Assembly (NCBI GenBank): GCA_964242115.1
Contig: CAXSZX010000001.1
Span: 634,020 to 698,019 of the forward strand
DNA length: 64,000 nucleotides
Origin: an uncultured Acetobacteraceae bacterium
GTDB lineage: Bacteria; Pseudomonadota; Alphaproteobacteria; Acetobacterales; Acetobacteraceae
Direction of reading: 5' to 3'
The position numbers and the translations under genes were made by a program. The notes under the pieces are model-generated. The model saw only the letters and a list, made by a program, of their open reading frames with translations. It did not search any database and was not told the DNA's origin. Positions 1 to 19,751 of the stretch are shown piece after piece. Within the stretch, counting starts at the first letter, position 1. Each line of letters opens with the position of its first letter.

Positions 1-1
1 C

Positions 2-940
2 GGGCTGCAGCAGGCCGACGCCAAGATCGTCTCGCGCGCCGAATGGCCGCAGGCGCCGTCGTTCCCGAAAAAAAGTGTGATCCTGCCCGCGGTGTTCGTC
101 GCCAGCTGCCTGGTCGCCGCCCTGCTCGTGCTGGCGGTGGAAAGCCTGGACCAGGGCTTCAGCACGCTCGAACAGCTCGAAGCCGCGCTGGGCTTTCCGG
201 CACTCGGCCTCATCCCGCTGCTCAAGCGCCGCGAGGCCCGTCGGCGCGCGCCGGAACGCCACGTGCTGGACCGCCCGACATCGCCGTTCGGCGAGGCGAT
301 CCGCAACCTGCACACCGGCCTGATGCTGACCGGGCTGGAGCGGGCGCCAAAGGTGATCCTGATGACCTCGGCGCTGCCAAACGAGGGCAAGACGGCCGTC
401 TCGCTGTCCATGGCGCGCATGATGGCGAGCTGCGGCAAGCGGGTGGTCATCGTGGACTGCGACCTGCGGCGCCCCTCGCTGCACAAGGCGCTGAACACGC
501 CGCGCGGCCCGGGCCTGACCGACTGCCTGAAAAAAAGCGCCGAGCTCGAAGACGTGCTGGTCGTCGACCCGCTTTCCGGCGCGCACGTGCTGCCGGCCGG
601 AACCCTCGGCAACACCGCGCCGGACCTGTTCGCCTCGGCGGCCATGCGGCGTCTGGTGGGCCAGCTGTCGGACCTCTACGACCTCGTCGTGCTGGACTGC
701 GCGCCGGTGCTCGCCTTGTCCGACACGCGCCACCTGTGCAGGCTCGCCGACCAGACCGTGTTCATCGTGCGCTGGCAGGAGACGCGCTGCCAGGCCGCCG
801 CGGCCGCCCTGCGCCAGGTGGTCAGCGCCGGCGGGCGCGTGGGCGGCCTGCTGCTGTCGATGGTCGACCTGGACCAGTATAGCCGCTACTCGACGCTGGG
901 CGTCACCCAGCGCCGCATCGGCCTGTATCTGACCCAATGA
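2..940 (+). CDS. Polysaccharide co-polymerase / tyrosine autokinase (Wzc/ExoP-type), C-terminal part; 5-prime truncated by the window start
   Basis: Frame is open from position 2. Transmembrane segment (VILPAVFVASCLVAALLVLAV) is followed by a ParA/MinD-like kinase domain with Walker A (SALPNEGKT) and DCD(L)RRP. Confidence 0.75.
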   Translation, partial: GLQQADAKIVSRAEWPQAPSFPKKSVILPAVFVASCLVAALLVLAVESLDQGFSTLEQLEAALGFPALGLIPLLKRREARRRAPERHVLDRPTSPFGEAIRNLHTGLMLTGLERAPKVILMTSALPNEGKTAVSLSMARMMASCGKRVVIVDCDLRRPSLHKALNTPRGPGLTDCLKKSAELEDVLVVDPLSGAHVLPAGTLGNTAPDLFASAAMRRLVGQLSDLYDLVVLDCAPVLALSDTRHLCRLADQTVFIVRWQETRCQAAAAALRQVVSAGGRVGGLLLSMVDLDQYSRYSTLGVTQRRIGLYLTQ

Positions 941-970
941 TACCAGCGGCCTCGGCCCTTTCGGAGTTTG

Positions 971-1112
971 GCAAGGAAGCAAGGCCTTCTTTTCTGAAGA
1001 AAAGAAGCAAAAGACTTTTGGTCCGGCTGTCGCGGAGTTTCCTTCAGCCAGTACTCCAGGGAACAAAAGTTTTTTGGTTCTTTTTTTCAAAAAAGAACCG
1101 CTTGCTTTGCCT
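971..1112. repeat. MITE/REP-like palindromic element, copy R1
   Basis: Left hairpin arm CTTCTTTTC-TGAA-GAAAAGAAG, core GCTGTCGCGG, right arm GGTTCTTTTTTT-C-AAAAAAGAACC. Lies 30 bp after the stop of the Wzc-like gene. Confidence 0.85.
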
Positions 1113-1141
1113 GTCACCGGCCAAAACCTGAGACGGATGGT

Positions 1142-2287
1142 ATGAGAGGCACGATGCGCGTCGCGTTGCTGCAGAACTTCGTAGCGCCCTACAGGGTCCT
1201 CTTCTACGAGCGGCTCGCCGCCAAGGTCGGCGCGTTCCGCGTGTTCGTCTCCACGCCGATGGAGAGCGACCGCAACTGGGCGGTTGAATGGGGCACGCTG
1301 GACGTGGCCGTGCAACGCAACCTGACGCTGCACCGGCCGTACCGCGACAGCCTCGGCTTCTCGCGCGTGCTGCAGCTCCACGTGCCGTACGACACCATCC
1401 CGCGCCTGCTGCGATTCCGCCCGGACGCGGTCATCTCGGTGGAGCTCGGCGCGCGCAGCCTACAGGCGGTGCTCTATAAAAAGCTGCGGCCGCGCGTGCG
1501 CCTGCTGATCTGGTGCAAGCTGTCCGAACACAGCGAGCGCAACTGGGGACGCGCGCGCACCGCGCTCCGGCGCTACATCCTCGGCCATGCCGACGCCGTG
1601 CTGGTCAACGGCGAGAGCGGCGCGCGCTACGTGGCCCGCTTTGGCGTGCCGGACCACGCCATCCACCGCATCAACCAGCCGGTCGATGTCAGCCGTTTTG
1701 CCGCGGTGCCCCGCACCCGCGACGAGGGCCTGGCCTGCCGCCTGCTGTGTGCCGGCACGCTGACCGCGCGCAAGGGACTGGTGCCGTTCGTCCAAGCCGT
1801 CATCGCCTGGGCGCGGGCCAACCCGGACCGCCAGGTCGAGATCTGGTGGCTGGGCGACGGCGAGCTTGCCGGCGAGCTCGCCGCCCAGGTTCTGCCGCCC
1901 AACCTCACGCAGCGTTTCTGCGGCGCCGTGCCCTACGACGACATGCCGGCCTACTACGCCCAGTGCGACCTGCTCGCCTTTCCGAGCCTACTCGACGAAT
2001 GGGGCCTGGTGGTCAACGAGGCGATGGCGGCCGGCCTGCCGGTGCTGGGCAGCGTGCTGGCCCAGGCGGTCACCGAACTGGTGGAGGATGGCCAGACCGG
2101 CTGGACGTTCGACCCTTCCGACCCGGCCGCCATGCGACAGGCCATCGAGCGCACACTCGATACGCCGCCGGACAGGATGGCGGCGATGCGCGCGCTGGCG
2201 CGCCGGCGTATCGCGAGGCTGACGCCGGAGAGCGCTGCGGCTCGGATTGCAGATGCGCTTGAAGCGAAGCAAGCAGTTCTTTTTTGA
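1142..2287 (+). CDS. Glycosyltransferase family 4 (EPS biosynthesis)
   Basis: 381-aa ORF with GT4-like C-terminal domain (E..GLVVNEAMAAGLPVLGS). The stop codon TGA lies inside repeat copy R2. Confidence 0.75.
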   Translation: MRGTMRVALLQNFVAPYRVLFYERLAAKVGAFRVFVSTPMESDRNWAVEWGTLDVAVQRNLTLHRPYRDSLGFSRVLQLHVPYDTIPRLLRFRPDAVISVELGARSLQAVLYKKLRPRVRLLIWCKLSEHSERNWGRARTALRRYILGHADAVLVNGESGARYVARFGVPDHAIHRINQPVDVSRFAAVPRTRDEGLACRLLCAGTLTARKGLVPFVQAVIAWARANPDRQVEIWWLGDGELAGELAAQVLPPNLTQRFCGAVPYDDMPAYYAQCDLLAFPSLLDEWGLVVNEAMAAGLPVLGSVLAQAVTELVEDGQTGWTFDPSDPAAMRQAIERTLDTPPDRMAAMRALARRRIARLTPESAAARIADALEAKQAVLF

Positions 2288-2408
2288 AAAAAAGAACCAA
2301 AAAACTTTTGACTCCGCTGTCGCGCGCTCGCCGGGGAAAACCGCGACAGCCGCAGTGAAAGCTTTTTGCTTCTTTTCTCGAAAAAGAAGGCCTTCGCTTC
2401 CTTCCGTC
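2266..2408. repeat. MITE/REP-like element, copy R2
   Basis: Both hairpin arms are present. The core forms a palindrome (CTGTCGCG...CGCGACAG). Supplies the TGA stop of the glycosyltransferase. Confidence 0.85.
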
Positions 2409-2428
2409 GACTGCAGCAGGACACGCAG

Positions 2429-3637
2429 ATGCAAAATGAACTGCAACGTTTCTACGAGTTCGACTGGTCCACTGCGGAACCCCTCGGCCAGTTCCAGACG
2501 AAATCGCGCGCCGGCCTGATCGAGCGCGTGGCCAGCGAGGTGTTCGCCGGCTGCAACGTGCTGACCATCAGGGGATGCCGCGGCGTCGGCAAGACCCATG
2601 TCGGCCGCCATCTGGTGTCGCTGTTGCGAACGCATGGCTATGCCGTCGTCTGCGCCAGCGGGGCCGTGCACGGTGTCGCACAGATGCAAAGCCTCCTCGC
2701 GCAGGCTGCGGCCAGCGCCGAGCGCGGCTCGCATCGGCTGGTCCTGGTCGTGGACGACGCGAAGGCGTGCCCGGAAGCGGTATTTTCATACGTCTGGTCG
2801 CTCGTCGCCCGGCGTCCCGGAGCGCCGCCGATACAGCTCGTCCTGCTGGGCGAGGTCGGGCCCTGGCCGGGCCTTAACGAGCCCGGCCTGGAGGACCTGC
2901 GGGAGGCCACCACGTCGTGCTACATCCTTACCCCCTTCGAGGAGGACGAGGCCGCCGCCTACGTGCGTGACAAGCTCGGGCGCCACAAGCTCGGGCAGGC
3001 GGGGCGGCGAGGGCGGATCAGCCGTGTCGCGTTGCGCACCCTGATCGGCCAGTCACACGGCGTGCCGGCGTTGTTGGACGCGCTGGTCTTCGACGCGCTG
3101 GTGCAGACCGAGAAACTGCGCAAGCTCAGCGCCGCACCTGCAAGGCGGCCGAGCGGCGCCGCACCGGCAAAGTTACCGAGCGCCGAGCCCGCCCGCCCGC
3201 GTTGGACGCCACGGCTTCCATCCATGGCCCTGGCCGCCACCGTCAGCGTCGCGCTGATCGCCACGCTGGCCGCCACCGCTCTCGCCCCACCGCGGGCGAA
3301 CCCCCTTGTGGTGCGGCTGCCAAGCGCCGTCCGGTTGCTGGCGTCCACGCGCATGCTGCCTGTTCAAGCGGCGGTCTACACGTCGCTCGCGCCGCTGCCG
3401 GCACGGACCGTCGAGGCAAACGCCGCCGACCCTGTGAATCAGGATGCCGGACGGGTCGGGCCCGGCCTCGTTCTCGTCGCCGCCGCGGGGGACGACATGA
3501 GGATGCTCTACGACAAGGTGTATCGAGGCGTGACACCGCCGCCCTACCGCGCCGTGCTGGCCGTCAACCGGTCGCCGTTAAAAGCAGGTGGGCTGGTCGC
3601 GTTTCCTGAGCCACCGCACGGCTGGTCGTCGCGCTGA
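2429..3637 (+). CDS. ExeA-like AAA ATPase, as found in EPS/exosortase-type loci
   Basis: P-loop GCRGVGKTH plus a Walker B-like LVLVVDDA. The N-terminal 21 aa of the track ORF are repeat-derived, so the start is placed at MQNELQRF. Confidence 0.65.
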   Translation: MQNELQRFYEFDWSTAEPLGQFQTKSRAGLIERVASEVFAGCNVLTIRGCRGVGKTHVGRHLVSLLRTHGYAVVCASGAVHGVAQMQSLLAQAAASAERGSHRLVLVVDDAKACPEAVFSYVWSLVARRPGAPPIQLVLLGEVGPWPGLNEPGLEDLREATTSCYILTPFEEDEAAAYVRDKLGRHKLGQAGRRGRISRVALRTLIGQSHGVPALLDALVFDALVQTEKLRKLSAAPARRPSGAAPAKLPSAEPARPRWTPRLPSMALAATVSVALIATLAATALAPPRANPLVVRLPSAVRLLASTRMLPVQAAVYTSLAPLPARTVEANAADPVNQDAGRVGPGLVLVAAAGDDMRMLYDKVYRGVTPPPYRAVLAVNRSPLKAGGLVAFPEPPHGWSSR

Positions 3638-3651
3638 CGACTAGAAAGCGG

Positions 3652-3790
3652 GCAAGGAAGGCAAGGCCTTCTTTTCTGAAGAAAAGAAGCAAAAGACTTC
3701 TTTCCCTGCTGTCGCGAAGGTTCTGCAGCACGTACCCAAGTGAGCAAAAGTTTTTTGGTTCTTTTTTCAAAAAAGAACCGCTTGCCTTTC
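3652..3790. repeat. MITE/REP-like element, copy R3 (canonical)
   Basis: Nearly identical to R1; 15 bp after the ATPase stop. Confidence 0.9.
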
Positions 3791-3825
3791 TGTTACAGCT
3801 CAACTGCCGCCGCACGCGTCGTCGG

Positions 3826-4272
3826 TCAGTCTGCTGCCAGGCCGTGCTGCTTCAGCCAGGCAGCCCGCGCTGCGGGCTCGTTCGGAGAAAAGTGCAGACG
3901 CACCTGCACGCCTCGCACATCGCGCGTCAGCACCTTCAGGAAAGAAAGGTTCGGCACCGTGACGTCCAGGACCGCAGGGGCCGACCACGCCAGAAGCGGC
4001 CGACTCTCCGCGTATCCTCCCGTATCGACACCGAGCACGGCCACCCCATCAGGCGCCGTGCCCGGTCCGACCAGCCTGACCGTTGCGGTCACGTCCGAAC
4101 CGGAGTCGCCGCCGCACACCGCTTCGTCCACCAAGGCCTGAAACGGGCCGGACGGTTCTGCAAGGCGGGCGACGATCGCGTGCGTGCAACCCTCGCCGGT
4201 CTGCGCTGCGCAGCACGGCATCCCGAATGCGCAAATCACTCCGGCAGCCAGGAGGATTTGCAAAAACGGCAT
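3826..4272 (-). CDS. Hypothetical secreted protein (N-terminal signal peptide)
   Basis: 148-aa ORF beginning MPFLQILLAAGVICAFG. Its start overlaps the stop of the upstream ORF at 4272. Confidence 0.4.
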   Translation of the reverse strand: MPFLQILLAAGVICAFGMPCCAAQTGEGCTHAIVARLAEPSGPFQALVDEAVCGGDSGSDVTATVRLVGPGTAPDGVAVLGVDTGGYAESRPLLAWSAPAVLDVTVPNLSFLKVLTRDVRGVQVRLHFSPNEPAARAAWLKQHGLAAD

Positions 4273-4790
4273 TACGATGTTGTGGGCTTGATCCGCCCTG
4301 TTTCGATCAGCTTGAAGCCGGTTTCGGTGTTGGCGACGTTACGCGCCGGCAGATGGGTGTACGTCTGATCCATCAGCGTGCCGGCAGTATATCGGCTGTG
4401 TCTAGCGGCATAGCTGTTCTGGATGCCAAGGATTTCGGCACGCTTTATCCCTGAAGATGCCGCGTAGAGCCCGATCGCCACGGTCGCGTAGTCGACGAAC
4501 TCGGCATGAAAATGTCCGCCGATACGCTGTGCGTCCCAATCGCCACCTTGCCTGAACCTGGCGAGTTCGAAGGCTGCGTGTTCGAGGATCGTCAGGCCGC
4601 CGCCGCTGCTGTCCAGGTAGCTGTACCGCAGCAGCATCTCGTAATAGCGCCTATCCAGCGCGCCCTGATTGACAAAGACGTGCGGGTCCAGACCTGCAGG
4701 CCTCAGCATGGGCCTGCCTTGTGCGTCTTGGACTGCCTGGTTCGCGTCGTCCAGGAACGCGACGGACGCCTCTTTCGGGCTGGGCGGCAT
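4272..4790 (-). CDS. Hypothetical protein
   Basis: ORF 4272..4910 trimmed to MPPSPKEAS because the upstream codons derive from repeat R4. No family recognised. Confidence 0.4.
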   Translation of the reverse strand: MPPSPKEASVAFLDDANQAVQDAQGRPMLRPAGLDPHVFVNQGALDRRYYEMLLRYSYLDSSGGGLTILEHAAFELARFRQGGDWDAQRIGGHFHAEFVDYATVAIGLYAASSGIKRAEILGIQNSYAARHSRYTAGTLMDQTYTHLPARNVANTETGFKLIETGRIKPTTS

Positions 4791-4822
4791 TCTGTTCCTC
4801 GCGTCATGGACAGTGCAGTCAG

Positions 4823-4951
4823 GCAAGCAGTTCTTTTTTGAAAAAAAGAACCAAAAAACTTTTGTTCCCTTGGGCGCGTGCTGCAGAAACCTCCGCGACA
4901 GCGGGGACAAAAGCTTTTTGCTTCTTTTTCTCGAAAAAGAAGCGCTTGCCT
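4823..4951. repeat. MITE/REP-like element, copy R4
   Basis: Arms plus a CGCGACAG core (inverted orientation). Confidence 0.85.
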
Positions 4952-6566
4952 AAACCTTGCTAGCCTCCTCGGCCACCAGCTCCTTCTTCGACAGCTTGCC
5001 GATCATCGTCTTAGGCAGCTCGTCACGTATTTCCACCTCGCGCGGCAGCTCGATCTTGCTGACGTAATCACCGAGAAAAGCGCGCAGCTCTTCGGCCGTC
5101 GCCGTGGTCCCGTCCTTCAACGTCACGAACGCTTTCGGCGCCTGGCCACGATACGCATCCGGCACGCCGATCACCGTCGCCTCGCGCACCGAGGGGTGCT
5201 GGTACAGCGCTTCCTCCAGCACGCGTGGATACACGTTGTAGCCGCCGCAGATGATCAGGTCCTTGATGCGGTCGACGATGAACAGGTAGCCGTCCTCGTC
5301 GAGGTAGCCGACGTCGCCGGTGCGCAGGCTCCCGTCGATCATCACACGCGCCGTCTCGTCGGGGCGGTTCCAGTAGCCGCGCATCACCTGCGGACCGCGG
5401 ATGCAGATCTCGCCGCGCTCGCCCTGCGGCATCAGGCGGGAGGGGTCGTCCAGCCCGCGTATCTCGATGGTGGTCTCCGCCATCGGCAGGCCGGCCGAGC
5501 CGTCCTTGTAGGTGCGGCCAGGTGGCGTGACACTGACCGAGGGCGAGGTCTCCGACAGGCCGTAGCCCTCCATCAGCCAGCAGCCGGTCATCGCCATGAA
5601 GCGGCTGCGCAGCTCCATTGGCAACGGCGCGCCGCCCGAGCAGCACACCTGCACGCAGCTGAGGTCCAGGTTCGCCTTGTGAGCGGCCTCGGTCAGCGCG
5701 CCGAAGATGGTGGGCACGGCGGGCAGGATAGTGGGCCGGCAGCGCGCGATGGTGGCCAGCACCTGGGCCAGTTCGAAGCGCGGCAGCAGCACCAGGGCGG
5801 CCGCACTCTGCACGCCGGCGAGCATCACCGAGGTCAGCGCGAAGACGTGGAACAGCGGCAGCACGCCGAGGATGCTGTCGGCCCCGCGCGGCCGGCTGCC
5901 GATCGCCATCCAGTTCTGCATGGCGTTGGCGGTGAGGTTGGCGTGTGTCAGCTCGGCGCCCTTCGGCACGCCGGTGGTGCCGCCGGTGTACTGCAGCACC
6001 GCGACGCTGGCCGGGTCGATCGTCACGGCGTCGGGCACCGCGGTGCCGCGCATGACGGCGGTCGCGCGCAGCGAGACGCCGTCGTCCGGCACGGACGCGA
6101 TCTCCGCCCGTTTGGCGATGCGGAACGCCTGGCCCTTCAGCCAGGGCAGCGCGTCGGCGAGGGAGCAGACGACGATCCGGCGCAGACCGGTGCGCGACGC
6201 CACCGCCGCCACCTTCGGGTAGACCGCTTTGAGGTCGATGGTGACCATCACCTCGGTGCCCGAATCGGTAATCTGGTGGGCCAGCTCGCGCTCGACGTAG
6301 AGCGGGTTGAAGTTGACCACGATGCCGCCGGCGCGCAGCACGGCGAAGAAGAACACCACCGAGTGCGGCGTGTTGGGCAGGCACAGCCCCACGCGGGTGC
6401 CGGGTGCGACGCCGATGTCCTGCAGGCCGCGCGTCGCCCGCGTCACTGCTTCGTCCAGCTGCCGGTAGGTCCAGCGCCTGCCCATGAAGTCGATGGCGGG
6501 CCGGTCCGGGAAATCGCGCACCGCGTCCTCGAGCAGGGCGGGCACTGGGCGGGCGGCGATCGGCAT
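4950..6566 (-). CDS. AMP-dependent synthetase/ligase (long-chain fatty acid-CoA ligase-like)
   Basis: 538 aa with AMP-binding motifs YTGGTTGVPKGAELTH, GYGLSE and TGDVGYLDEDGYLFIVDRIKDLI. Confidence 0.85.
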   Translation of the reverse strand: MPIAARPVPALLEDAVRDFPDRPAIDFMGRRWTYRQLDEAVTRATRGLQDIGVAPGTRVGLCLPNTPHSVVFFFAVLRAGGIVVNFNPLYVERELAHQITDSGTEVMVTIDLKAVYPKVAAVASRTGLRRIVVCSLADALPWLKGQAFRIAKRAEIASVPDDGVSLRATAVMRGTAVPDAVTIDPASVAVLQYTGGTTGVPKGAELTHANLTANAMQNWMAIGSRPRGADSILGVLPLFHVFALTSVMLAGVQSAAALVLLPRFELAQVLATIARCRPTILPAVPTIFGALTEAAHKANLDLSCVQVCCSGGAPLPMELRSRFMAMTGCWLMEGYGLSETSPSVSVTPPGRTYKDGSAGLPMAETTIEIRGLDDPSRLMPQGERGEICIRGPQVMRGYWNRPDETARVMIDGSLRTGDVGYLDEDGYLFIVDRIKDLIICGGYNVYPRVLEEALYQHPSVREATVIGVPDAYRGQAPKAFVTLKDGTTATAEELRAFLGDYVSKIELPREVEIRDELPKTMIGKLSKKELVAEEASKV

Positions 6567-6568
6567 GG

Positions 6569-6898
6569 CTATTTCTGCATGTTGCGGGTGCCGGCGGGCA
6601 GGCGGACGGTCAGCCCGTCCAGCTCCGGCGTCATCACGATCTGGCAGCCGAGCCGGCTGGTCGATTGCAGGCCGAAGGCGAGGTCGAGCATGTCCTCCTC
6701 GTCCTCCGTCGCCTTGGCCAGCTTGCCGTACCAGGCCGGGTCCACCACCACGTGGCAGGTGGAGCAGGCCAGCGAGCCCTCGCAGGCGCCCTCGATGTCC
6801 ACGCCGTATTTGTGCGCCACCTCCAGCACCGACAGGCCGAGCGGCGCGTCCACTTCGCGTGCGGTGCCGTCGCGCTCGACGAAGGTCATCTTGGGCAT
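6569..6898 (-). CDS. fdx: 2Fe-2S ferredoxin (adrenodoxin/Fdx type)
   Basis: 109 aa, [11 protein letters not shown]..., with cysteine motif [12 protein letters not shown]...C. The remainder of track ORF 6569..7771 is spurious. Confidence 0.8.
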
Positions 6899-6903
6899 GT
6901 GCG

Positions 6904-8073
6904 TCAGGCCTCTGCGTGTTCCGGGGTGTGGACCGGACGGGACAGGCGCGCGTGTGCGCCGGCCAGCGCGTCCGCGGCTGCGTCGATGTCGGCGGCCGAG
7001 GTAAATCGTCCGATACCTATGCGCAAGCTGCGCGCGGCCTCCTCGCGGGTCAGCCCCATGGCGGTCAACACGGTGCTCGGCGCCACCTCTGCCGAGCTGC
7101 AGGCCGAACCGGTGGAGACGCAGACCGACGGCACCGCCGCGATCAGGTCCAGCGAGCGCAGGCCGGGCAGGCGCAGGCTGAGGTTGCCGGCCACGCGCGG
7201 CGCGCCGGCGTTGTTGTGCACCAGGCCTGGGATCCCCGCCTGCAGCCTGGCCGCCAACCGGTCGCGCAGCGCGCCGATGCGGGCGGCTTCCTCGGCCAGC
7301 CCCGCCTGCGCCAGCCGGCACGCGAGCCCGAACCCCACCACCAGCGGCGTGGGCAGGGTGCCGGAGCGCAAGCCGCGTTCCTGGCCGCCGCCGGAGAACA
7401 GCGGCGCCAGGCGCACCCGCGGGCGGCGGCGGACGTAGAGCGCGCCCACCCCCTTGGGCCCGTACACCTTGTGTGCGCTCAGCGAGGCTAAATGCAGGCC
7501 GAGCCCGCCCATATCCAGCGGGATTTTGCCGGCGGCCTGCGCCAGGTCGGCATGCACCAGAGCGCCGGCTGCCCGGGCGAGGGCAGCGATGGCTGCGAGG
7601 TCCTGGATCACGCCCGTCTCGTTGTTCACCGCCATCACGCTGACCAGCAGCGTGGGCGTGCGCAGCGCGTGGGCCAGCCGCTCCAGGTCCAGCAGGCCGC
7701 TGCGCTCCACTGGCAGCACCACCGGCTCGAAACCCTCCGCGGCCAGGTCGCGCACGCTTTCCAGGACGCATTTATGCTCGGTCGCCAGGGTGACAACGCG
7801 GCGCGGGCCGGCGACGCCGGCGTGCCTGGCGGCGCCCTTGATGGCCAGGTTGTTGGCCTCAGTGGCGCCGGAGGTCAGCACCACCTCGCGCGGTTCGGCG
7901 CCGAGCAGGGCGGCCACCTGCGCGCGGGCTGCTTCCACGGCGCCGGCGGCACGCTGGCCGGCCGCGTGCTCGGCGCTGTGCGGGTTGCCGAAATCCTCGC
8001 TGAACCAGGGCAGCATGGCGGCCACCACGGCCGGGTCGCACTGCGTGGTGGCCTGGTTGTCGAGGTAGATCAT
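6904..8073 (-). CDS. Cysteine desulfurase (NifS/IscS family), paralog 1
   Basis: [11 protein letters not shown]..., PLP-lysine motif [10 protein letters not shown] and active-site GSACSS. The start is taken at the internal ATG 8071-8073. Confidence 0.8.
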
Positions 8074-9152
8074 GCGGCCACCATGGCACGCCCGGCGGGC
8101 AGTGCGGCGTAGGCCTCGGCGAAGCGGTCGATGTCGGCCTCGGTCGCGTCCCACGGCAGCGAGACGCGGATGGCACAGCCGGCGAGCTCGCCCAGCCCCA
8201 TCGCGTCGAGCACGTGGCTGCGCGCCACCTTGCCCGAGCTGCAGGCGGCCCCTGCCGAGACCGCGATCCCGGCGAGGTCGAGCGCCATCACCTGCAGGTC
8301 CGCGCGCAGGCCGGGCCGCGCGAGGCAGGTGGTGTTGGGCAGGCGCGCGCCGCCGCCGCACACCACCGCGCCGCAGGAAACGGCTGCCGCCTCCGCCCGG
8401 TCGCGCAGCTTGCGGAGGTGCTCGGCGCCTTCAACGGCGGCAGCGGCGGCGGCGGCGGCGAAACCGGCGATCGCCGGCAGCGCCTGCGTACCGCCGCGCC
8501 GGCCGCGTTCCTGCCCGCCGCCGGCAACCTGCGGTGCCACGTGGCTGCCCGGCGCCAGCACGAGGGCACCGGCGCCTTTCGGGCCGCCCAGCTTGTGGCC
8601 GGACAGTGCGAGGCTGTCGGCACCCAGGGCGGCCAACGACACGCCGATGCGCCCGGCCGCCTGCACCGCGTCCACGTGCAGCAGGGCCCCATGCGCACGG
8701 CAGACGGCCGCCGCTTCGGCGACGGGGTGGATCACCCCGGTCTCGTTGTTGGCCAGCATCAGGCACACCAGAGCCGGCCCGTGAGACAGCAATTCGGCTA
8801 GGCAAGCCAGGTCGGCCTGCCCGTCCGCGTGCACCAGCAGCGTTTCAGCACCCGGCGCAGCCGACCTCACAGCATCGTGTTCCGTGGCGCAAACGATGAT
8901 TCTCCGGCCTGCAGACAGCCCTACGATGGCCAGCGCGTTGGCTTCCGTGCCGCCGGAGGTGAACACGATGTCGGCTGGACCGGCGCCCACCAACGTCCCG
9001 ATCACGCTGCGCGCGTCTTCCAGAACCCGCCGTGCAGCACGTCCGGCGCTGTGTACGGAGGACGGATTGCCCACCAGGTTGAGCGCGCGCAGCACCGCAT
9101 CGCGTGCCTGCGGGCGCAGCCTCTCGGTGGCGTTGGCGTCGAGGTAAATCAT
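8070..9152 (-). CDS. Cysteine desulfurase (NifS/IscS family), paralog 2
   Basis: MIYLDANATE..., SGHKLGGPKG, GAACSSG. Overlaps paralog 1 by 4 bp (ATGA). Confidence 0.8.
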   Translation of the reverse strand: MIYLDANATERLRPQARDAVLRALNLVGNPSSVHSAGRAARRVLEDARSVIGTLVGAGPADIVFTSGGTEANALAIVGLSAGRRIIVCATEHDAVRSAAPGAETLLVHADGQADLACLAELLSHGPALVCLMLANNETGVIHPVAEAAAVCRAHGALLHVDAVQAAGRIGVSLAALGADSLALSGHKLGGPKGAGALVLAPGSHVAPQVAGGGQERGRRGGTQALPAIAGFAAAAAAAAVEGAEHLRKLRDRAEAAAVSCGAVVCGGGARLPNTTCLARPGLRADLQVMALDLAGIAVSAGAACSSGKVARSHVLDAMGLGELAGCAIRVSLPWDATEADIDRFAEAYAALPAGRAMVAA

Positions 9153-9424
9153 CGCAGGACTGCATATCGCATGGCCCGAAGATGTGGACCCATGCGTCCT
9201 CAACATGAAGGGTGCCGCCGATTTCAGTGTTAACCTGTGCCGTCGTCTGCCTATATTTAGGGCTGGCCGTGACCGGCCCGGCTAGGCGCCAGGCAGGATA
9301 GTATGGCGTCCGTTTTCATCGACAAGCGTCCGCATTGGGCAAGGCAGTGCCCGGGCGGAAATGTCCGTTACCACCTGAGGTATCCGCCCTGCTCTGGCGA
9401 GGCCTGTGGAAGAACGAAGAAACT

Positions 9425-10090
9425 ATGCCCGAGGTGATGTTCGCCGGCCCCGATGGGCGCCTGGAGGGTCGCTACCACCACAGCAAGGAGAATGCTGCCC
9501 CGCTCGCGCTGATCATGCACCCGCACCCGTTGCACGGTGGCACGATGAACAACCGGATCACCTACACGATGTATCAGAGCTTCCAGAAGCTCGGCTTCAG
9601 CGTGATGCGGTTCAACTTTCGTGGTGTGGGCCGCAGCCAGGGCCGCTACGACGGCGGCATCGGCGAGATCGGTGATGCGGCCGCTGCACTCGACTGGATG
9701 CAGATGGTGAACCCTAGCCATGGTGGGCTTTGGATCGCTGGCTACTCGTTCGGCGCGTTCGTCGGCATGCAGCTGCTGATGCGCCGGCCGGAAGTGTCCG
9801 GCTGGATTTCGGTGGCGCCGCCGGCCAGCCACTACGATTTCGGGTTCCTCGCGCCTTGCCCCTGCGGCGGGCTGCTGGTGCACGGAGATTCCGACGAGCT
9901 GGTGCCGGAGCCTACGGTGCGGAAGCTCGTGGACAAGTTGAACACGCAGAAGAACGTGACAGTCGATTATCGCATCTTTGCTGGTGCCGACCACGTGTTT
10001 GCCAACCACGCCGAGCAGGTGGGCGAGGCGACCGAGGATTACGTGAAGAAGGTGCAGGCGCGTAAGACGATGGCGTTGGCGGCCGACTAG
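9425..10090 (+). CDS. Alpha/beta hydrolase fold protein
   Basis: MPEVMFAGPDG... with G.S.G nucleophile elbow (IAGYSFGA) and HGDSDELV. Confidence 0.7.
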   Translation: MPEVMFAGPDGRLEGRYHHSKENAAPLALIMHPHPLHGGTMNNRITYTMYQSFQKLGFSVMRFNFRGVGRSQGRYDGGIGEIGDAAAALDWMQMVNPSHGGLWIAGYSFGAFVGMQLLMRRPEVSGWISVAPPASHYDFGFLAPCPCGGLLVHGDSDELVPEPTVRKLVDKLNTQKNVTVDYRIFAGADHVFANHAEQVGEATEDYVKKVQARKTMALAAD

Positions 10091-10184
10091 GCATGGCCAG
10101 GGGGCGCTGCCCCCTGGACCCTCGCTAAGGACAGTCGTCCGTAGAACCTGTTGTTTAAGGGTTTTCAGAGAGGGGCCGCACGCG
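10091..10184 (+). repeat. Family-2 conserved element, copy 1
   Basis: About 85% identical to 20479..20572. Contains a perfect GC hairpin CCAGGGGGC-GCT-GCCCCCTGG. Lies directly after the stop of the hydrolase gene. Confidence 0.6.
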
Positions 10185-10259
10185 TCGTGGCCTCGGCCCT
10201 TACCTTGACTCCGCCGCCCACCTCCGTCCCCATGCCGCCTCCACCTGAGGGCAACATGC

Positions 10260-12296
10260 ATGAACAGACGCATCCTGGCGGCCGGCGCCGCTTTCAGTCT
10301 GCTGAGCGTCGCCGCATCCGCGGCCGAGACCACGCAGACCTTCCCCACCGGCCCCTGGGGTTTCGACACCTCCGGCATGAACCGCAAGGTCACTCCCGGC
10401 AACAACTTCTTCGAATTCGCCAACGGCGCCGCGGTCGCCAGCATCGTCATCCCGCCGGACCGCACGAATTTCGGCGCATTCATCGCACTTGCCGACCTGT
10501 CCGAGCAGCGCGTCCACGCGATCCTGGACGAAGCCTCCGCCCACGTAGCCGACCAGCCGACGGACGCAATCGGCAAAGCTGGCGCCATGTTCAAGGCTTT
10601 CATGGACGAGGCCGCGATCGAGAAACTTGGCGCCGCACCGCTGAAGCCCGAGCTGGCCGAGATTACCGCGCTGAAAACGCCGGCGGATTTCGCGGCGCTG
10701 CAAGGACGCGCGCAGACGACGTTCCAGGGTTCGCTGTTCTCGATGGACATCGAGCCGGACGCGAAGGACCCGACCAAGTATTCGATCAACCTGGGTCAGG
10801 CCGGGCTCGGCATGCCGGACCGTGATTATTACATCTCCGCCCAGTTCGCCGACAAGAAAGCCAAATACGCGGCCTTCGTAACCAAGATGCTGACGCTGGC
10901 CGGCTGGGCCGATCCGTCCGGCAGTGCCGCAAAGGTCGTGGCCTTCGAGCAGAAGATTGCCGAAGCCAGCTGGGCGCGTGCGGACGAGCGCGACCCTGAC
11001 AAAGTGTACAACCCGATGACGCCGGCGGAGTTGGCACACAACGCGCCCGGTTTCGACTGGCCGGTGTTCTTCAAGGCGGCGCAGCTCGGCATGCCGGATC
11101 GGGTGGTCATCGCGGAGAACACCGCGGTGGAGAAGATTGCGGCGATCGCCGGCGCCGCACCGATGGACACGTTGCAGGCCTGGTCTGCCTTCCACCTGGC
11201 GACCAACGCCGCACCGGTGCTTTCCAAAGACTTCGTGACCACAGCTTTCGACTTCGACAATCGTGAGCTGCAAGGCCAGCCGCAGCAACGCCCGCGCTGG
11301 AAGCGCGGCGTGCATGCGACCGAGGCCGCACTGGGCGAAGCCGTCGGCGAGACCTACGTGCAACGTTACTACCCGCCGGAAGCGCAGACGAAGATGGAGG
11401 CGCTGACGCACGACCTGCGCGCCGCCTTTCGCGTCCGCCTGCAGCACAACTCCTGGATGCAGCCGCAAACGCGCGAGTTGGCGGTGGCCAAGCTGGATGC
11501 GTTCGACTTCCAGATCGGCAAGCCGAAGAAGTGGCGCGACTACACGTCGCTGCAGATCAACGCGCACGACCTGTACGGCGACGTGGAGCGCGGCACCGCG
11601 TTCGAATGGGCGTTCTGGCTGCAGCACCTTGGCCATCCGGTGGACAAGGACCAATGGGACATGACGCCGCAGACGGTGAACGCCTACAACAACCCTGTCT
11701 TTAATGAGGTCGTGTTTCCGGCCGCCATCCTGCAGCCGCCGTTCTTCGACGAGAAGGCGGACCCGGCGATCAACTACGGTGCGATCGGCGGCGTGATCGG
11801 CCACGAGATGACGCACGGCTTTGACGACGAGGGCCGCAAGTTCGACGCGATGGGCCGCCTGCACGATTGGTGGACCGCGGAGGACGCCAAGCACTTCGAC
11901 GCGCTGGGTAAACGGTTCGGCGCGGAATACGCGGCGATCGACGTGATGCCCGGCGCGCACATCAACCCGGCGCTGACGATGGGCGAGAACATCGCCGACC
12001 TCGGCGGGCTGACGCTGGCGCTGGACGCCTACCACGCGTCCCTGCACGGCCAGCCGGCGCCGGTGGTGGACGGCATGACCGGCGACCAGCGCGTGTTCCT
12101 CGGCTGGGCGCAGGTGTGGCGCGCCAAGGTGCGGCCGGACGCGGCGCGGCAGCGTCTGGTGACCGATCCGCACTCACCGCCGGTGGCGCGGGTGAACGGG
12201 CCGGTGCAGAACATCGACGCCTGGTACACGGCTTTCGATGTGAAACCGGGTGAGGCGCAGTTCTTGAAGCCTGAGGATCGTGTGAAGATCTGGTAG
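10260..12296 (+). CDS. M13 family zinc metallopeptidase (neprilysin/PepO-like), secreted
   Basis: 678 aa with signal peptide, HEMTHGFDDEGRKFD (HExxH) and a C-terminal ...W motif. Confidence 0.85.
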   Translation: MNRRILAAGAAFSLLSVAASAAETTQTFPTGPWGFDTSGMNRKVTPGNNFFEFANGAAVASIVIPPDRTNFGAFIALADLSEQRVHAILDEASAHVADQPTDAIGKAGAMFKAFMDEAAIEKLGAAPLKPELAEITALKTPADFAALQGRAQTTFQGSLFSMDIEPDAKDPTKYSINLGQAGLGMPDRDYYISAQFADKKAKYAAFVTKMLTLAGWADPSGSAAKVVAFEQKIAEASWARADERDPDKVYNPMTPAELAHNAPGFDWPVFFKAAQLGMPDRVVIAENTAVEKIAAIAGAAPMDTLQAWSAFHLATNAAPVLSKDFVTTAFDFDNRELQGQPQQRPRWKRGVHATEAALGEAVGETYVQRYYPPEAQTKMEALTHDLRAAFRVRLQHNSWMQPQTRELAVAKLDAFDFQIGKPKKWRDYTSLQINAHDLYGDVERGTAFEWAFWLQHLGHPVDKDQWDMTPQTVNAYNNPVFNEVVFPAAILQPPFFDEKADPAINYGAIGGVIGHEMTHGFDDEGRKFDAMGRLHDWWTAEDAKHFDALGKRFGAEYAAIDVMPGAHINPALTMGENIADLGGLTLALDAYHASLHGQPAPVVDGMTGDQRVFLGWAQVWRAKVRPDAARQRLVTDPHSPPVARVNGPVQNIDAWYTAFDVKPGEAQFLKPEDRVKIW

Positions 12297-12607
12297 GCAA
12301 GGAAGCAGTTCTTTTTAAGTGTCCGTTTGCAAAATCGCTTGGCGGCCATCTGTCGCGATGTCTCTGCTTCGGTGCTTACAGCCATAAAGGCTCGGCCTGC
12401 CCGCTCAAGCAGGTGGCGCAGGCAAGCAGATCCGCTCCGACGCCCTAAAACCACAGCAGTTGACACACCAAGCTAATTTTGCAGACCGACACTGAAAGAA
12501 GAAACAAACGACTTTCGTTCTCCGAGTACGCGCTGGCCAAGAAGTCCGCGACAGCAGAGAAAAAAGTTTTGCTTCTTTTTTTCAAAAAAGAAGGCCTTGC
12601 TTACTTT
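12296..12607. repeat. Long/composite MITE-like element R5: truncated arm+core and core+arm separated by ~190 bp
   Basis: A GGCAAGGAAGCAGTTCTTTTT arm follows the M13 peptidase stop. ...CGCGACAGCAGAGAAAAAAGTTTTGCTTCTTTTTTTCAAAAAAGAAGGCCTTGC lies at the far end. Confidence 0.6.
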
Positions 12608-13452
12608 CCTATGAGCGCGTTTAGGATCTCCCCCGAGCGCGTCAACGCCAGCGAGTAGTGCCCCTCGCCCTCAAGCAGCCGGATTTTCGCCGGCAAATCT
12701 GCATACGCGCTCAAAGTCGCAGGCGGCACCACGATGTCCGCCGAGCCGTGCCAGATGCCGACCGGAGCACGCATGCTGGCCAGGTTGAAGCCCCAGTCGC
12801 TCGCGTAGATGCGTGCGTCCGAAGCAGCGCCGGCCACGCCATGCCGCAGGCCTTCCGCCCAGGCGGCAATCAGGCCAGCTCGGCGTGCTTGTGACAGGCA
12901 CGCGGCGTCGGCTGGGGTGCTCGCACCCTCCAGCACGCGATGCGGGTCGAACAGGCCGACGCGGATGCCTTGCCGGATGCAAGTCATCAAAGCGTAGGCC
13001 GATGTCGGGTGCAGCCCGAGCCACTGCAGGCGGCGCAGGCCTTGCCCGAGGGCAGCGTCGGGCGGGGCCGCGCCAGGTGTCAGCGGCGGCAGCGGGCTGA
13101 TCAGCGCGGTGCCCGCCACCCGGTTCAGCAGGTGTGCGCAGGCGACGGCGTAGGGCGCGCCGCCGGAGACGCCGACGACGTAGAAGCGCTCCACGCCGAG
13201 GTGGTCGGCCAGGGCAGTGACATCCGCCGGCCAGTCGAGCAGGCGGCGGCGCGGCTGGGGTGAGGAGTACCCGTAACCGGGGCGGTCGATCGCGATCAGC
13301 CGCAGCTTGATGCCGTCCACCACGGCGGCTTCCAGGCGGGAGGCGGGCCAGCCGTGGAAGTAGAAGGCTGGCGGGGCCGAGGGATCGCCGGTGATGGCGT
13401 AGCTGAGGGTGCGGCCATCGGGCAGCAGGAGTTGGTCGTCGGGTGGGGGCAC
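12601..13452 (-). CDS. Alpha/beta hydrolase (proline iminopeptidase-like)
   Basis: HGWPASRLE and GVSGGAPY motifs. A GTG start is assumed at 13452. The track ORF continues upstream only through repeat R6. Confidence 0.6.
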   Translation of the reverse strand: MPPPDDQLLLPDGRTLSYAITGDPSAPPAFYFHGWPASRLEAAVVDGIKLRLIAIDRPGYGYSSPQPRRRLLDWPADVTALADHLGVERFYVVGVSGGAPYAVACAHLLNRVAGTALISPLPPLTPGAAPPDAALGQGLRRLQWLGLHPTSAYALMTCIRQGIRVGLFDPHRVLEGASTPADAACLSQARRAGLIAAWAEGLRHGVAGAASDARIYASDWGFNLASMRAPVGIWHGSADIVVPPATLSAYADLPAKIRLLEGEGHYSLALTRSGEILNALIGK

Positions 13453-13461
13453 GGCGAGGAA

Positions 13462-13630
13462 GTAAGCGGTTCTTTTTCGAAAAAAAGAACCAAAAACTTT
13501 CGTCGCCTGAGTGCGAGGCCCAGCAGAAGCGCACGGCCGCCGAAAGCCGAACGCAAGCTTCATCACGGCATGTCGAGAGACACCAAGTGTTTTTTGGTTC
13601 TTTTTTTCCAAGAAAGAACCGCTTGTGCTG
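13462..13630. repeat. MITE/REP-like element, copy R6 (longer central region)
   Basis: Both arms are recognisable. Confidence 0.75.
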
Positions 13631-13778
13631 CCTCTACTAAGAATCGCCGAAACGACTTCCGGCGCTGCGTGACCTGCTCGGAGTGAGGTCGTTTCAGCCG
13701 AACGGGTGCACGGACCGGCAGTCAACCGGTCCGTGCGCCAAACTCGTTCCTGAGTGCGTCAGCAGGCTGGCTGACGCA

Positions 13779-15002
13779 TTAGTGCGCGACCAACGGCCCC
13801 AAGTAGAGGTTCCAGTTGTGTCGGGTATTCGGCTTGCCGTTCGACGTATAGGAGAACTGGTAGTTTCCGTCGTCATTGGTGTCCCAGATGCTGACGAACG
13901 ACATGTTCAGGCCTCTGTTCTGTCCGCTGACGATCGTGTGGCCAAGCCAGTTGGCGAACGTAGCGTCGTCGGACACGTCGGCACCGGAGTCCGACGAACC
14001 GGAGCCGCACTCGGGGACTGCGAACGGCTTCTTGTGTTGTATGGCGAAGTTCATGACGCTGTCGAAGCTTTGGCTGTGGCCGTTGCTGCCGTCGAGCGAC
14101 CATCTCGTGGCGGCCGGGTACGTCCAGTAGTGCCACCGATTGGTTGGTTGGGCCATGAAGGCTGCGAGCGAGTAGTCTTCGCCCCCGGTCACCCAGTCGT
14201 GGATCTGCACGCCGCTGCCGTCGTAGAACGGATACATGCCGGCGTAGATGTCGATCCCGATGATGTCGACGACGTCGTCGCCTGCGTAAAGGTTGTTGGT
14301 GGCTTCGGCGTTGCTGTAGTTGGTTGCACTTGGGTTCCAGACCACCTTTAGCGACACGCCGGCGGCGCTGGCCGTCTGGTGCATGACGGTTGCGATGCGC
14401 CGGAACGCAGCCACCCAGTCAGACTGCGTGTTGGAATCATCGCCGGCATAGTTCGGCTGATAGCTCAGGTTCATTTCCCAGCCGATGCGAAAGATCAGCG
14501 TCTTGAATCCCTGGGCGATCCAGGCGTTGACAACCTGCTGCACCACCCAGTCATACTGGCCGCTGGCGAACAGCTGGTATTGCTGGTCCGTGCTCGGCGA
14601 GCCTCCGGCGAGGGACTGCATCGGAAACCCCACCACGGGCACCATGTGTTTCGCCGAAGTCGAGACGCTGTTCGAATACGCCTGCCACGAGGCGTTGGAC
14701 TGCCAGTCGCCGACCGGCTGCGTAAAGTCGGTGTAGACGTCGATCAGTGTAGGCGCCGCCCCGAGTGCGTTCTTGAAGCTGTTGAAATTGGCATCGACCG
14801 TGGCTTCAGCCGCGGCGTTCGAGCTGTTCGGGCCGCCAATGTACACGCCGAGTGCAAACGGTGCTGCAGCCACCGCCGACACCGGCGTGAGAGCCAAACA
14901 TGTCAGAAATGTTGCACTCGCCGCGAAGCCGCGCACTGCGCCCGTTCTGGCCGAGTTCGAAAATCGACAGTTCTCATCAAGGGAATTTGTGTCAAATCGC
15001 AT
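13779..15002 (-). CDS. Secreted glycoside hydrolase, GH26-like
   Basis: Signal peptide, IGWEMN acid/base-like motif, VPECG. The start is uncertain (MRFDTNSL). Confidence 0.6.
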   Translation of the reverse strand: MRFDTNSLDENCRFSNSARTGAVRGFAASATFLTCLALTPVSAVAAAPFALGVYIGGPNSSNAAAEATVDANFNSFKNALGAAPTLIDVYTDFTQPVGDWQSNASWQAYSNSVSTSAKHMVPVVGFPMQSLAGGSPSTDQQYQLFASGQYDWVVQQVVNAWIAQGFKTLIFRIGWEMNLSYQPNYAGDDSNTQSDWVAAFRRIATVMHQTASAAGVSLKVVWNPSATNYSNAEATNNLYAGDDVVDIIGIDIYAGMYPFYDGSGVQIHDWVTGGEDYSLAAFMAQPTNRWHYWTYPAATRWSLDGSNGHSQSFDSVMNFAIQHKKPFAVPECGSGSSDSGADVSDDATFANWLGHTIVSGQNRGLNMSFVSIWDTNDDGNYQFSYTSNGKPNTRHNWNLYLGPLVAH

Positions 15003-15526
15003 ATAAAATAAACCTCTCGCGAGAAACCGGCCAAAAAAACCGGCTGCGTTGCCGCGATGTCTGTCTACACAGACGCGTGAGGCGATGCAACCACAGATCA
15101 CGATTTAATACAGATTTCTGTGGATGTTCGTTCGGCGTTGTAAAACCTGAATCAAAACGAACACTGTTCAGTTGAGTGCCGAACTTGTTTTGTTTCCTGC
15201 TTGTGCTCACTATGCAATACGCCGAACGGCGCTGCCTTTACGCCGTCATCCATCGAGCTGGATGCGCGGCGAGATCCCCGATAACGGGCAGTCCCCGAAG
15301 ATGTCAGCCGTATGGAGATGGGCGATGGGCGTCCGCGCGTCAGCCGGACGCTACTCACCTAGCGTCGGTCTGTCGCCAACCATGAACCGTTTCCATCAGC
15401 ACGGGACTGGCGAAACATGCTGCTGGTCCGGCAATGGCGAGCCGCTCTGATGCAAACACCTTCGCCGCTACCTGTCCGACTGTGTAACAACGGCGGCCCT
15501 AGGTCCTGACCCTGTCGACGTTCGGC

Positions 15527-15662
15527 AAGGAAAGCAAGACCTGCTTTTTTGAAAACCAGCAAAAAACTTTTGGTCCTGCTGTCGCGGAGTTTCCGCCAGC
15601 GTGCACTCAAGGAAGCAAAAGTTTTTGGTTCTCTTTTTCAAAACGAACTGCTTGCCTTGCCT
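15527..15662. repeat. MITE/REP-like element, copy R7 (diverged arms)
   Basis: GCTGTCGCGGAGTTTCC core. Confidence 0.75.
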
Positions 15663-15906
15663 TTCTCCATGCGACGTTTCGAGCCGTAGCCATCAGGGCA
15701 AAACATCGTTGCGGGAACAATGCAAAACGCATCGCTGCCGGCGTTTGAACGTCAAGCTCCGGCATCGATCAGGTTGCCCACGCGATTGGAAGCGCAGGCT
15801 TGCTGTCTCCTTTCCGCAGGCTTCATGCGACCTTAGGAGATGCCTCGCGTTCTTACCCGCTCACAGGCCACGCCGTGGGCGCGCGCTGTGGCATCAGGGA
15901 GAGCGC

Positions 15907-16448: not shown

Positions 16449-16482
16449 GACCGGCGTCTAGCACGCGCGTCTGCCGCAGCAG

Positions 16483-16628
16483 AAGCAAGGCCTTCTTTTT
16501 CGAGAAAAAGAAGCAAAAAGCTTTTGCTGCGGCTGTCGCGGACGGCTGAAACGACACGTCTCAGCAGCACGCACCTGCAGAGAGCAAAGATTTGGTTTTT
16601 TTTTCGAAAAAGAACCGCTTGCTTGCTT
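16483..16628. repeat. MITE/REP-like element, copy R8
   Basis: CGAG-loop arm variant with a GCTGAAACGACAC central subfamily. Lies between the convergent DUF4142 and ltaE genes. Confidence 0.85.
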
Positions 16629-17682: not shown

Positions 17683-17716
17683 CGGGGAGCCTGCTTTCGA
17701 AAATGTCGGCCCAAGG

Positions 17717-19734: not shown

Positions 19735-19751
19735 CGGCGGGGGCGCTTTTA

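Follow-up and report, generated by a model that had tools for sequence, protein, structure and literature searches.

Why should so many unrelated genes end at the same repeat? The question is raised by a 64-kb stretch of DNA from an uncultured Acetobacteraceae bacterium (the window, by which we mean the whole stretch), in which members of a palindromic repeat family adjoin stop codons. Each locus of this family is called a copy here. Copies were located by repeat finding, then alignment, and then with an nhmmer profile derived from 11 full copies. Genes were mapped by our own codon-usage calls (48 genes), with Pfam/NCBIfam support for key genes. The nhmmer search identified 27 repeat loci covering 4,009 bp (6.3% of the DNA), or about one per 2.3 kb; copies are palindromic and 135 to 157 bp long. 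A pattern joining the tip and hairpin of the repeat, AAGCAAGNNNTTCTTTTTTGAAAAAAAGAA, matched the window 30 times at three mismatches or fewer, and shuffled sequences are expected to give 0 matches. The original prediction, made for the interval 2266–2408, which corresponds to one copy (2262–2403), held that in at least 20 genes a repeat begins within 30 bp of the stop codon and sometimes supplies the stop and the last residues. On our map, 22 of the 48 called genes stop no more than 30 nt from a copy or inside one. Copies lie at stop codons far more often than chance allows, and bases of the stop are shared with or supplied by the element.

Stop codons and protein ends at the repeat tip

Ends of copies were aligned on their AAGCAAG anchor, and the offset of the nearest inward-reading stop codon was recorded; the resulting statistics count element ends, some of them orthologous, and not independent insertion events. 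Offsets of −16 to −6 accounted for 13/29 stops in the window and 37/57 in 12 related genome loci. A slot of 9 nt, from −16 to −8, held 50 of the 67 stops lying between −100 and −8 (binomial p = 1.2e-36), and 50 of 62 when only the nearest 36 nt were counted (p = 5.9e-20). The same concentration was replicated in an independent set of metagenome sequences, where among the matches listed (at least 120 contigs) 68 of 108 stops fell at −16 to −6 (p = 1.1e-36). Placement is thus non-random relative to gene ends, with stops crowding at the tip far beyond chance.

The type of stop codon depended on its position. TGA stops lay mostly at −15/−14, just outside the tip or with one base in common, and in TAA and TAG stops, at −13 to −8, a T precedes the AAG or AGG of the tip. 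TAA made up 27 of 50 stops at junctions and 26 of 137 elsewhere (odds ratio 5.0, p = 6.6e-6). It is dominant at junctions because the T of the stop is the last base of the gene and the next AA or AG are the first bases of the tip. Since tips are runs of (S)AAG and such a stop is a T plus two purines, a gene that shares bases with the tip can end exactly there, and its stop must then be TAA or TAG. Pairs of stop and element start named in the original prediction were recovered on our gene map (940/971, 3637/3653, 25231/25237, 30860/30858, 33014/33031, 36596/36591, 37459/37461, 47619/47622, and 48582/48580), as were the minus-strand genes ending at 12601, 16627, 26264, and 48719, whose TAA is read from a terminal CTTA. 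Stop-facing ends had no orientation bias (p = 0.84), both end types abutting stops equally. T was not enriched overall at −8 or −12 (9/51 and 8/51), so there is no conserved flanking base. Copies in tandem gaps were closer to the stop than to the next start in 10 of 12 cases (p = 0.039).

Occupancy of intergenic gaps was then counted by gene orientation. In the window, copies were present in 9/9 convergent, 12/30 tandem, and 6/9 divergent gaps; across all carriers the counts were 36/49 (73%), 45/113, and 15/43 (35%), respectively. After subtraction of the copy, occupied convergent gaps retained a median of 2.5 nt. Copies fill nearly every non-operonic gap, chiefly at the 3' ends of genes. Convergent gaps in relatives lacking the family have a median of 40 nt (lower quartile −12) and tandem gaps a median of 24 nt. 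Gaps this short, together with the protection of the start-proximal side by promoters and ribosome-binding sites, could mean that any tolerated insertion must adjoin a stop, in which case the pattern would be uninformative. We consider this purely geometric account very improbable: it does not anticipate 50 of 62 stops in nine positions of the nearest 36 nt, it does not predict the enrichment of TAA, and occupancy is inverse to target size, the smallest gaps being most often filled.

The claim that the element supplies stops and C-terminal residues held for some genes, but most proteins encoded at junctions keep their native length. Read-in is confined to a minority, two genes in the window (those for a family 4 glycosyltransferase, GT4, and pyrF), and elsewhere the element abuts or overlaps the native stop. 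Residues 1–282 of the 284 in UppP align to positions 1–279 of the 281 in the equivalog model, indicating a native end. The TonB-dependent receptor retains its native aromatic end (YKF), and the domain of the M19 peptidase reaches residue 330 of 334, also a native end. In such genes the T of the stop stands where it natively does, and the tip contributes the one or two bases that follow. The M19 junction could be resolved to a single base by comparison with the closest genome locus, L001 (OZ240673.1), in which the protein is 98.8% identical: the window reads GAG GTT T/AG GCAAG and L001 reads GAG GTT T/GC TGA ACCGG, homology stopping at the slash, between T(−8) and A(−7).

The GT4 gene (1154–2287, assigned by Pfam) ends with ADALEAKQAVLF and, as had been predicted, its TGA (2285–2287) lies inside an arm, in the hairpin loop TTTTTTGAAAAAAA. 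Its last eight codons (EAKQAVLF) are encoded by the element. The pyrF gene (25319–26056, minus strand; OMPdecase by Pfam) ends with EMEKGKQFFVEKKNQKTFVT within copy 25237–25375. Its element-encoded tail, which follows EMEKG and reads KQFFVEKKNQKTFVT up to the stop, was confirmed, at 15 codons and not the roughly 17 first read. The comparison with orthologues that had been proposed was run, and both tails differ from those of orthologues lacking a copy: beyond a shared RIAxAL, GT4 orthologues have unrelated tails 1 to 35 aa long (two fetched loci have no element downstream), and pyrF orthologues without the element finish 0 to 12 aa past EMEKG. In both cases, read-in replaces native tails that are dispensable and variable.

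Ends of M19 peptidases vary as well (AEV, AEVC, AAKEALLF, and VKEDVLF, each followed by the stop). In the homologue ending in VKEDVLF, from locus L051, the element overlaps the gene end (1975–2000). The last two of these M19 tails are in the same frame as the GT4 tail, so that K-[QE]-x-[VL]-L-F constitutes a recurrent element-encoded tail that remodels C-termini. It was seen on unrelated proteins, namely GT4 and two M19 peptidases (P0124 and P0128). Where the tip offers no in-frame T, translation runs on to the TGA of the hairpin loop, giving this tail, or to a stop in the core. The resulting C-termini had been called strain-variable; they do differ between species and genera, but strains 92 to 98.6% identical share copies at the same junctions.

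Anatomy of the repeat and comparison with known families

Each copy consists of two inverted AT-rich hairpin modules flanking a GC-rich core. Outermost lies a purine-rich tip, (S)AAG(S)AAGCAAG, followed by a 3-nt linker and an AT-rich hairpin of 9 to 11 bp (for example, GGTTCTTTTTT-TC-AAAAAAGAACC or CTTCTTTTTC-GA-GAAAAAGAAG). Inward of the hairpin lie CAAAAAACTTTTG and then a variable GC-rich core of 50 to 70 bp, often with GCTGTCGCGG, and the second half mirrors the tip, the hairpin, and CAAAAAACTTTTG. Information content of the tip is high from −7 to −1 (AAGCAAG), weak from −12 to −8 (A-A-R-G-N), and at background beyond −13. The median distance from anchor to anchor is 130 nt (199 pairs). 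The whole copy folds on either strand as one hairpin of about 60 bp (dG of −54 to −61 kcal/mol, z of −3.7 to −6.6). Variants in the local stems are compensatory, arising by double changes (TTC/GAA, TCC/GGA, and TGC/GCA), and 20 of 24 copies are heterotypic, pairing one CTTC..GAAG hairpin with one GTTC..GAAC hairpin. The local hairpins thereby stay complementary while pairing across the arms gains a mismatch, which indicates that the two local hairpins are the conserved objects.

The element forms a previously undescribed and very abundant family, similar to REPINs (paired repetitive extragenic palindromic [REP] sequences) and bacterial interspersed mosaic elements (BIMEs) or to MITEs (miniature transposable elements with inverted repeats). 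Rfam gave no match to the repeat at gathering thresholds, only the signal recognition particle (SRP) RNA being found, and a literature search for the arm sequences returned no relevant paper. Like REPs, BIMEs, and REPINs, including those of Pseudomonas and the GTAG-tagged SMAG family of Stenotrophomonas, the element is extragenic, present in high copy number, biased toward convergent and unidirectional gaps, and persistent over long vertical descent. It likewise comprises short palindromic units in inverted pairs that form a larger hairpin (a hairpin of at least 6 bp is formed by 143/149 ends, and the 64 kb contain 53 ends), its termini supply stops, and it is a target of insertion sequence (IS) elements, as seen for an IS30-like element in a copy in L001. 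In BIMEs, Y and Z REPs alternate, much as two unit types are combined in one element here. There are also differences: the genome has 66% GC and yet AT-rich hairpins, whereas those of REPs are GC-rich, the element carries a GC-rich core of 50 to 70 bp, its density of about one per 2.3 kb is at the high end, and no REP-associated tyrosine transposase was identified among the window genes scanned. The conserved tag of REPs is also missing, with GTAG at 1/48 ends and CGTC (as GACG) at 1/48.

Supply of stop codons by repeat tips is an already published phenomenon, here unusually sharp and dense. GTAG REP termini provide the TAG stops of flanking open reading frames (ORFs), and CGTC repeats have been reported missing from Acetobacteraceae (PMC3733652). 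Because the tip here is a run of (S)AAG tetranucleotides, the element supplies mostly TAA and not TAG as GTAG REPs do. In the RepRanger survey, Lichenicola cladoniae (Acetobacteraceae, 65.5% GC) was among the very REP-rich genomes (PMC12306157).

Terminal inverted repeats, a small size of 100 to 160 bp, a lack of coding capacity, and a hairpin RNA spanning the whole element link the family with IS-derived MITEs such as Correia/NEMIS of Neisseria, ERIC, RUP, and QMITE1/2 of Coxiella. The Coxiella elements overlap the 3' ends of genes by 1 to 50 bp and extend EnhC (PMC5896051), which resembles the overlaps and occasional encoded C-terminal extensions described above. The element differs from MITEs in that each terminal repeat is itself a palindrome, and there are no young copies, no matching autonomous IS in about 1 Mb of loci, and no detected target duplication: at the −12/−13 boundary, the 24 full copies showed no direct repeats, and TA was symmetric at only 3. 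The element lacks one defining feature of each class, namely the GTAG/CGTC tag expected of a REP and the target duplication expected of a MITE.

Structured palindromes directly 3' of ORFs, often with the stop inside, also recall the attC sites of integron cassettes. Such sites are imperfect palindromes of like size that follow and overlap cassette stops, and synteny does break at element edges, as attC sites would lead one to expect. The flanking genes, however, are housekeeping genes on both strands (uppP, pyrF, dnaX, and recR), copies have no common orientation, the tips lack GTTRRRY/RYYYAAC core sites, no integron integrase was found among the window genes scanned (Pfam/NCBIfam), and collinear blocks are stable between strains. 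An origin as cassette sites is, in our estimation, hardly credible.

To our knowledge, repeats occupying about 6% of the DNA place this among the densest bacterial repeat populations. The element is notable for this density, for the nucleotide-sharp junction, for AT-rich hairpins in a GC-rich genome, and for a recurrent encoded tail. In this clade, a repeat able to form a 60-bp hairpin contains or directly abuts the end of about a quarter of all genes.

Age of the copies and origin of the stop junctions

Forty-four pyrF-anchored genome loci formed the comparison set and placed the window among uncultured Acetobacteraceae. All 13 loci sharing 68% or more pyrF identity with the window carried the family, the other 31 lacked it, and the exact 34-nt arm sequence matched at least 120 metagenome contigs; the distribution of the family is limited to a clade of these uncultured bacteria. 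L001 is 87 to 93% identical to the window but rearranged, and contigs L045 (98.6% identical), L046 (96%), and L049 (92%) are collinear and carry the same copies. No gain or loss of a copy was seen in collinear blocks at 90 to 98.6% identity (L045, L046, L049, and the collinear parts of L001). Close relatives offered no clean pair of filled and empty sites, since differences occur only at rearrangement breakpoints with one comparable flank, and synteny around pyrF in the 44 genomes was too poor beyond L001 for most junctions to be compared. Pairwise identity among window copies has a median of 73% and a maximum of 87%, with no recent pair. Between L007 and L041, identity is 70% at 4-fold synonymous sites of the neighbouring gene and 95% and 100% in the two arms of the orthologous copy, with a core that cannot be aligned. 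Judged from these comparisons, the copies are ancient and vertically retained, with hairpin arms under constraint.

Orthologous junctions nevertheless differ. The threonine aldolase gene ends GCG TAA GCAAGCAAG in the window vs GCG TGA GGCAAGGCAAG in L001. The SPFH gene has a TGA and 16 nt in the window vs a flush junction, GGGAAG TAAGCAAGG, in L007 and L041. At pyrF, we found a 27-nt spacer (L008), a flush end (L009), and read-in (window and L001). Because orthologous junctions differ in spacer and stop type, they must evolve after insertion. Solo-hairpin or decayed remnants were observed right after stops at L009:10703–10750, at L048:6563–6609, and past the SPFH gene in L004, one of them filling a 41-nt convergent gap; it follows that copies decay in place and are not cleanly excised.

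An old REPIN/BIME-like repeat that was inserted or retained at stops, lost its spacer, and gained a function for its hairpin is, as a whole, the probable explanation. Insertion or retention would have been limited to the few permissive bases after stops in a compact GC-rich genome. The leftover spacer would then have been lost as the AAG tetranucleotide fringe slipped, and the stop would have been re-made from a T and AAG after slippage. The hairpins would probably be recognised as single-strand or cruciform DNA by a trans-acting enzyme, and in a 3' untranslated region, a long hairpin starting at the stop would probably serve as a stabiliser of the 3' end, a processing site, or a roadblock. 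A role of the RNA in 3' end protection, processing, or translation braking and a role of the DNA in protein binding to hairpins may both be envisaged.

Several points weigh against this explanation. No partner enzyme was found, and no pair of copies is recent enough to show mobility. No transposase was detected among the window genes scanned with Pfam/NCBIfam, a search covering the 64-kb window and fragments, and the 15 long inward-facing end pairs present in about 1 Mb of loci revealed no autonomous parent IS, as they enclose ordinary genes and, in one case, a nested IS. That IS (L001:6567–7650, 1,084 bp) belongs to the IS30 family and sits at the foot of the right hairpin of a copy; its ORF (6652–7602) encodes HTH_38 and a weakly matching rve domain, its 48-bp inverted repeats are perfect, and GGTTC is duplicated. 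Since these ends bear no relation to the element, the IS is a guest and not the parent. Stop density at the tip is about 13 to 14 times that in the next 15 to 30 nt, and gradual loss of spacer does not obviously predict such an edge. Breakpoints between the window and L001 that lie exactly at the stop/element edge fit active joining better. The gene calls are our own and the counted ends partly orthologous, and the RNA-level function is one that we infer wholly from sequence.

The same evidence bears on a different possibility, that a mobilising enzyme joins the tip beside a T and purines and that copies were flush from the outset. With about 90% of third codon positions being G or C, the T-purine motif would hardly occur in this genome outside stops, so new copies would land flush on them. 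The hard edge at −16, with its 13- to 14-fold excess over neighbouring positions, fits this account, as do the greater filling of the smallest targets (73% of convergent vs 35% of divergent gaps), the equal presence of both end types at stops, the loss of M19 homology to L001 between T(−8) and A(−7), and a breakpoint at the tip adjoining the lipase stop. All three window/L001 synteny breakpoints (37459, 33278, and about 26060–26137) are at element edges, and in two cases the position is exactly that of a stop codon. Stop-directed insertion is harder to reconcile with the lack of a target duplication and of a conserved flanking base (T at 9/51 and 8/51), with the absence of recent insertions among copies, with orthologous junctions that vary in spacer and stop type, and with copies that lie in divergent gaps or as much as 150 nt from stops. 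We regard it as a possible explanation, though not the favoured one. The edge, the occupancy of small gaps, and the stop/tip breakpoints speak for directed insertion, and the age of the copies, the polymorphism of junctions, and the absence of a flanking base speak for spacer loss; both may operate.

The copies could instead have been recruited as bidirectional terminators, stabilisers of 3' ends, or topological or protein-binding sites between converging units, with selection keeping them tight against stops. Occupancy of convergent gaps (9/9 in the window and 36/49 in carriers, with the copy forming the whole gap in several), conservation of the arms above that of synonymous sites across genera, and double changes that preserve hairpin complementarity are consistent with such a function. 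A study cited in PMC12306157 reportedly found that in E. coli, REPs no more than 15 nt from a stop stall ribosomes during termination and reduce translation. Here, too, a stable hairpin begins within a few nt of many stops, with the difference that in about a quarter of all genes the stop is itself part of the hairpin base.

The layout of a canonical terminator is lacking, however: the GC-rich stem has no direct U-tract (U-runs lie 5 to 10 nt from the core stem), and no T-runs follow the AT-rich hairpins. A consensus terminator scan of positions 1–20000 returned 17 sites vs 15.5 ± 4.7 in shuffles, with only some weak matches in copies, and a consensus promoter scan showed no enrichment. A terminator role of the copies has no support so far. 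The original prediction had allowed that insertion might be targeted at terminators, an idea that found no support, as no remnant terminator hairpins flank the copies. About a fifth of the copies lie in divergent (promoter) gaps, and recruitment would not itself require bases to be shared with the stop. We therefore rate recruitment as somewhat unlikely to be the main cause.

A bolder proposal, which we think unlikely, is a stop-anchored repeat system in which the tip is joined to the T of a stop, possibly carrying flanking DNA, or in which converging gene ends cannot do without their copies, which would relieve supercoils, form a roadblock, or help to form 3' ends. Joining of the tip to a stop T together with flanking DNA would explain the breakpoints at stop/element edges. 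If true, either version would make this a stop-codon-anchored repeat system and not a passive REP or MITE. Returning to the REPIN/BIME-like repeat that we favour, the family offers a natural system for how REP-like elements reach and hold the 3' ends of genes. The junction is fixed to the nucleotide and replicated in many genomes and metagenomes, with spacer, flush, overlapping, and read-in states found at one gene. The repeat also marks rearrangement breakpoints, and it will mislead gene callers, terminator predictors, and assemblers applied to uncultured Acetobacteraceae.

Copies across the window and neighbouring features

Several copies follow a stop at a short distance. Copy 971–1112, in a tandem gap, begins 30 nt after the TGA of the upstream gene at 940; copy 3653–3792 begins 15 nt after a TGA at 3637; copy 41311–41444 begins 35 nt after the TAA of the RNase H gene (41275); and copy 47622–47761 begins 2 nt after the TGA (47619) of a major facilitator superfamily (MFS) transporter gene. 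Copy 38174–38330 is 0 nt from the TGA of the amino-acid permease gene (38331, minus strand). The left tip and hairpin of copy 2262–2403 encode the end of GT4, and the next gene starts about 25 nt past its right tip.

Elsewhere, the tip contributes to the stop. The right tip of copy 4816–4952 (CTTGCCTA) gives the AG of the TAG of the acyl-CoA ligase gene (4950–6566, minus strand), and that of copy 57645–57780 does the same for the TonB-dependent receptor gene (57779–60139, minus strand). Right tips also form the TAA of three minus-strand genes: 12601–13452, from the partial copy 12495–12608 (CTTGCTTA); the threonine-aldolase-like gene 16627–17682, from copy 16481–16630; and 26264–28126, from copy 26137–26268, which lies 80 nt upstream of the pyrF start. 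The left tip of copy 30858–30997 (TAAGTAAGAAAG) contains the TAA (30858–30860) of gene 29493–30860, and the left tip of copy 36591–36745 (GGA TAA GCAAG) shares the TAA of uppP (35742–36596).

Converging genes are often separated by little else than a copy. Copy 25237–25375 fills its convergent gap, beginning 5 nt after the aldose-epimerase TGA (25231) and supplying pyrF with its final 15 codons and its TGA. Copy 37461–37606 forms an entire gap, with the lipase TAG (37457–37459) 1 nt before it and the TAA of the DUF892 gene (37608–37610, minus strand) 1 nt after it. Copy 48580–48722 also forms a whole gap, its tips (TAAGGAAGCAAG and CTTGCTTTCTTA) being the TAA stops of a glutathione S-transferase gene (48582) and of a 1,447-aa gene (48719, minus strand). 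Copy 55581–55719 lies 72 nt and 14 nt from the two stops of its convergent gap. The composite copy 33031–33279, between convergent genes, begins 16 nt after a TGA at 33014, and its right tip is the AG of the M19 peptidase TAG (33276). It contains roughly 1.5 elements, which surround a perfect GC-rich palindrome of 22 bp, CCGCCTCAAGATCTTGAGGCGG (33140–33161), possibly a remnant of the native convergent terminator.

Divergent gaps hold copies 18498–18632 (without an adjoining stop), 28182–28333, 34365–34519, and 39685–39839, and copy 15526–15662 occupies a large gap that is divergent or unassigned. Copy 13456–13625 is an exception to the pattern, being long, with the same hairpin type at both ends, and 153 nt from the nearest stop. 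Copy 19755–19832 is truncated and begins 20 nt after a TAG at 19734; in L001 its orthologue has the full length. Copy 23413–23732, between ybaB and recR, is interrupted by an internal insert and spans 320 bp, and copy 53330–53401 is partial, with the right half only. A weak partial element-like end was also found by nhmmer at 46256–46317 (E = 9e-5), near the 5' region of the MFS transporter gene.

Other features of the window were noted in passing. The genes dnaX, ybaB, and recR come after a bacterial small SRP RNA (20647–20745; Rfam RF00169, 49.9 bits). A 637-aa conserved protein was considered as DnaK and rejected; Pfam assigns it to SPFH/Band-7. The 1,447-aa gene (48719–53062, minus strand) contains 558-bp tandem repeats (families D8–D13), which suggests that its product is a large repetitive surface protein. 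A 27-bp tandem repeat of 4 to 5 units (27117–27251) lies inside the methyltransferase-domain gene 26264–28126. Two segments of low GC content (0.59), 13700–15500 with a 367-aa ORF that has no Pfam match and 53400–55100 with an F5/8 type C domain protein (53812–55074), may have been horizontally acquired.

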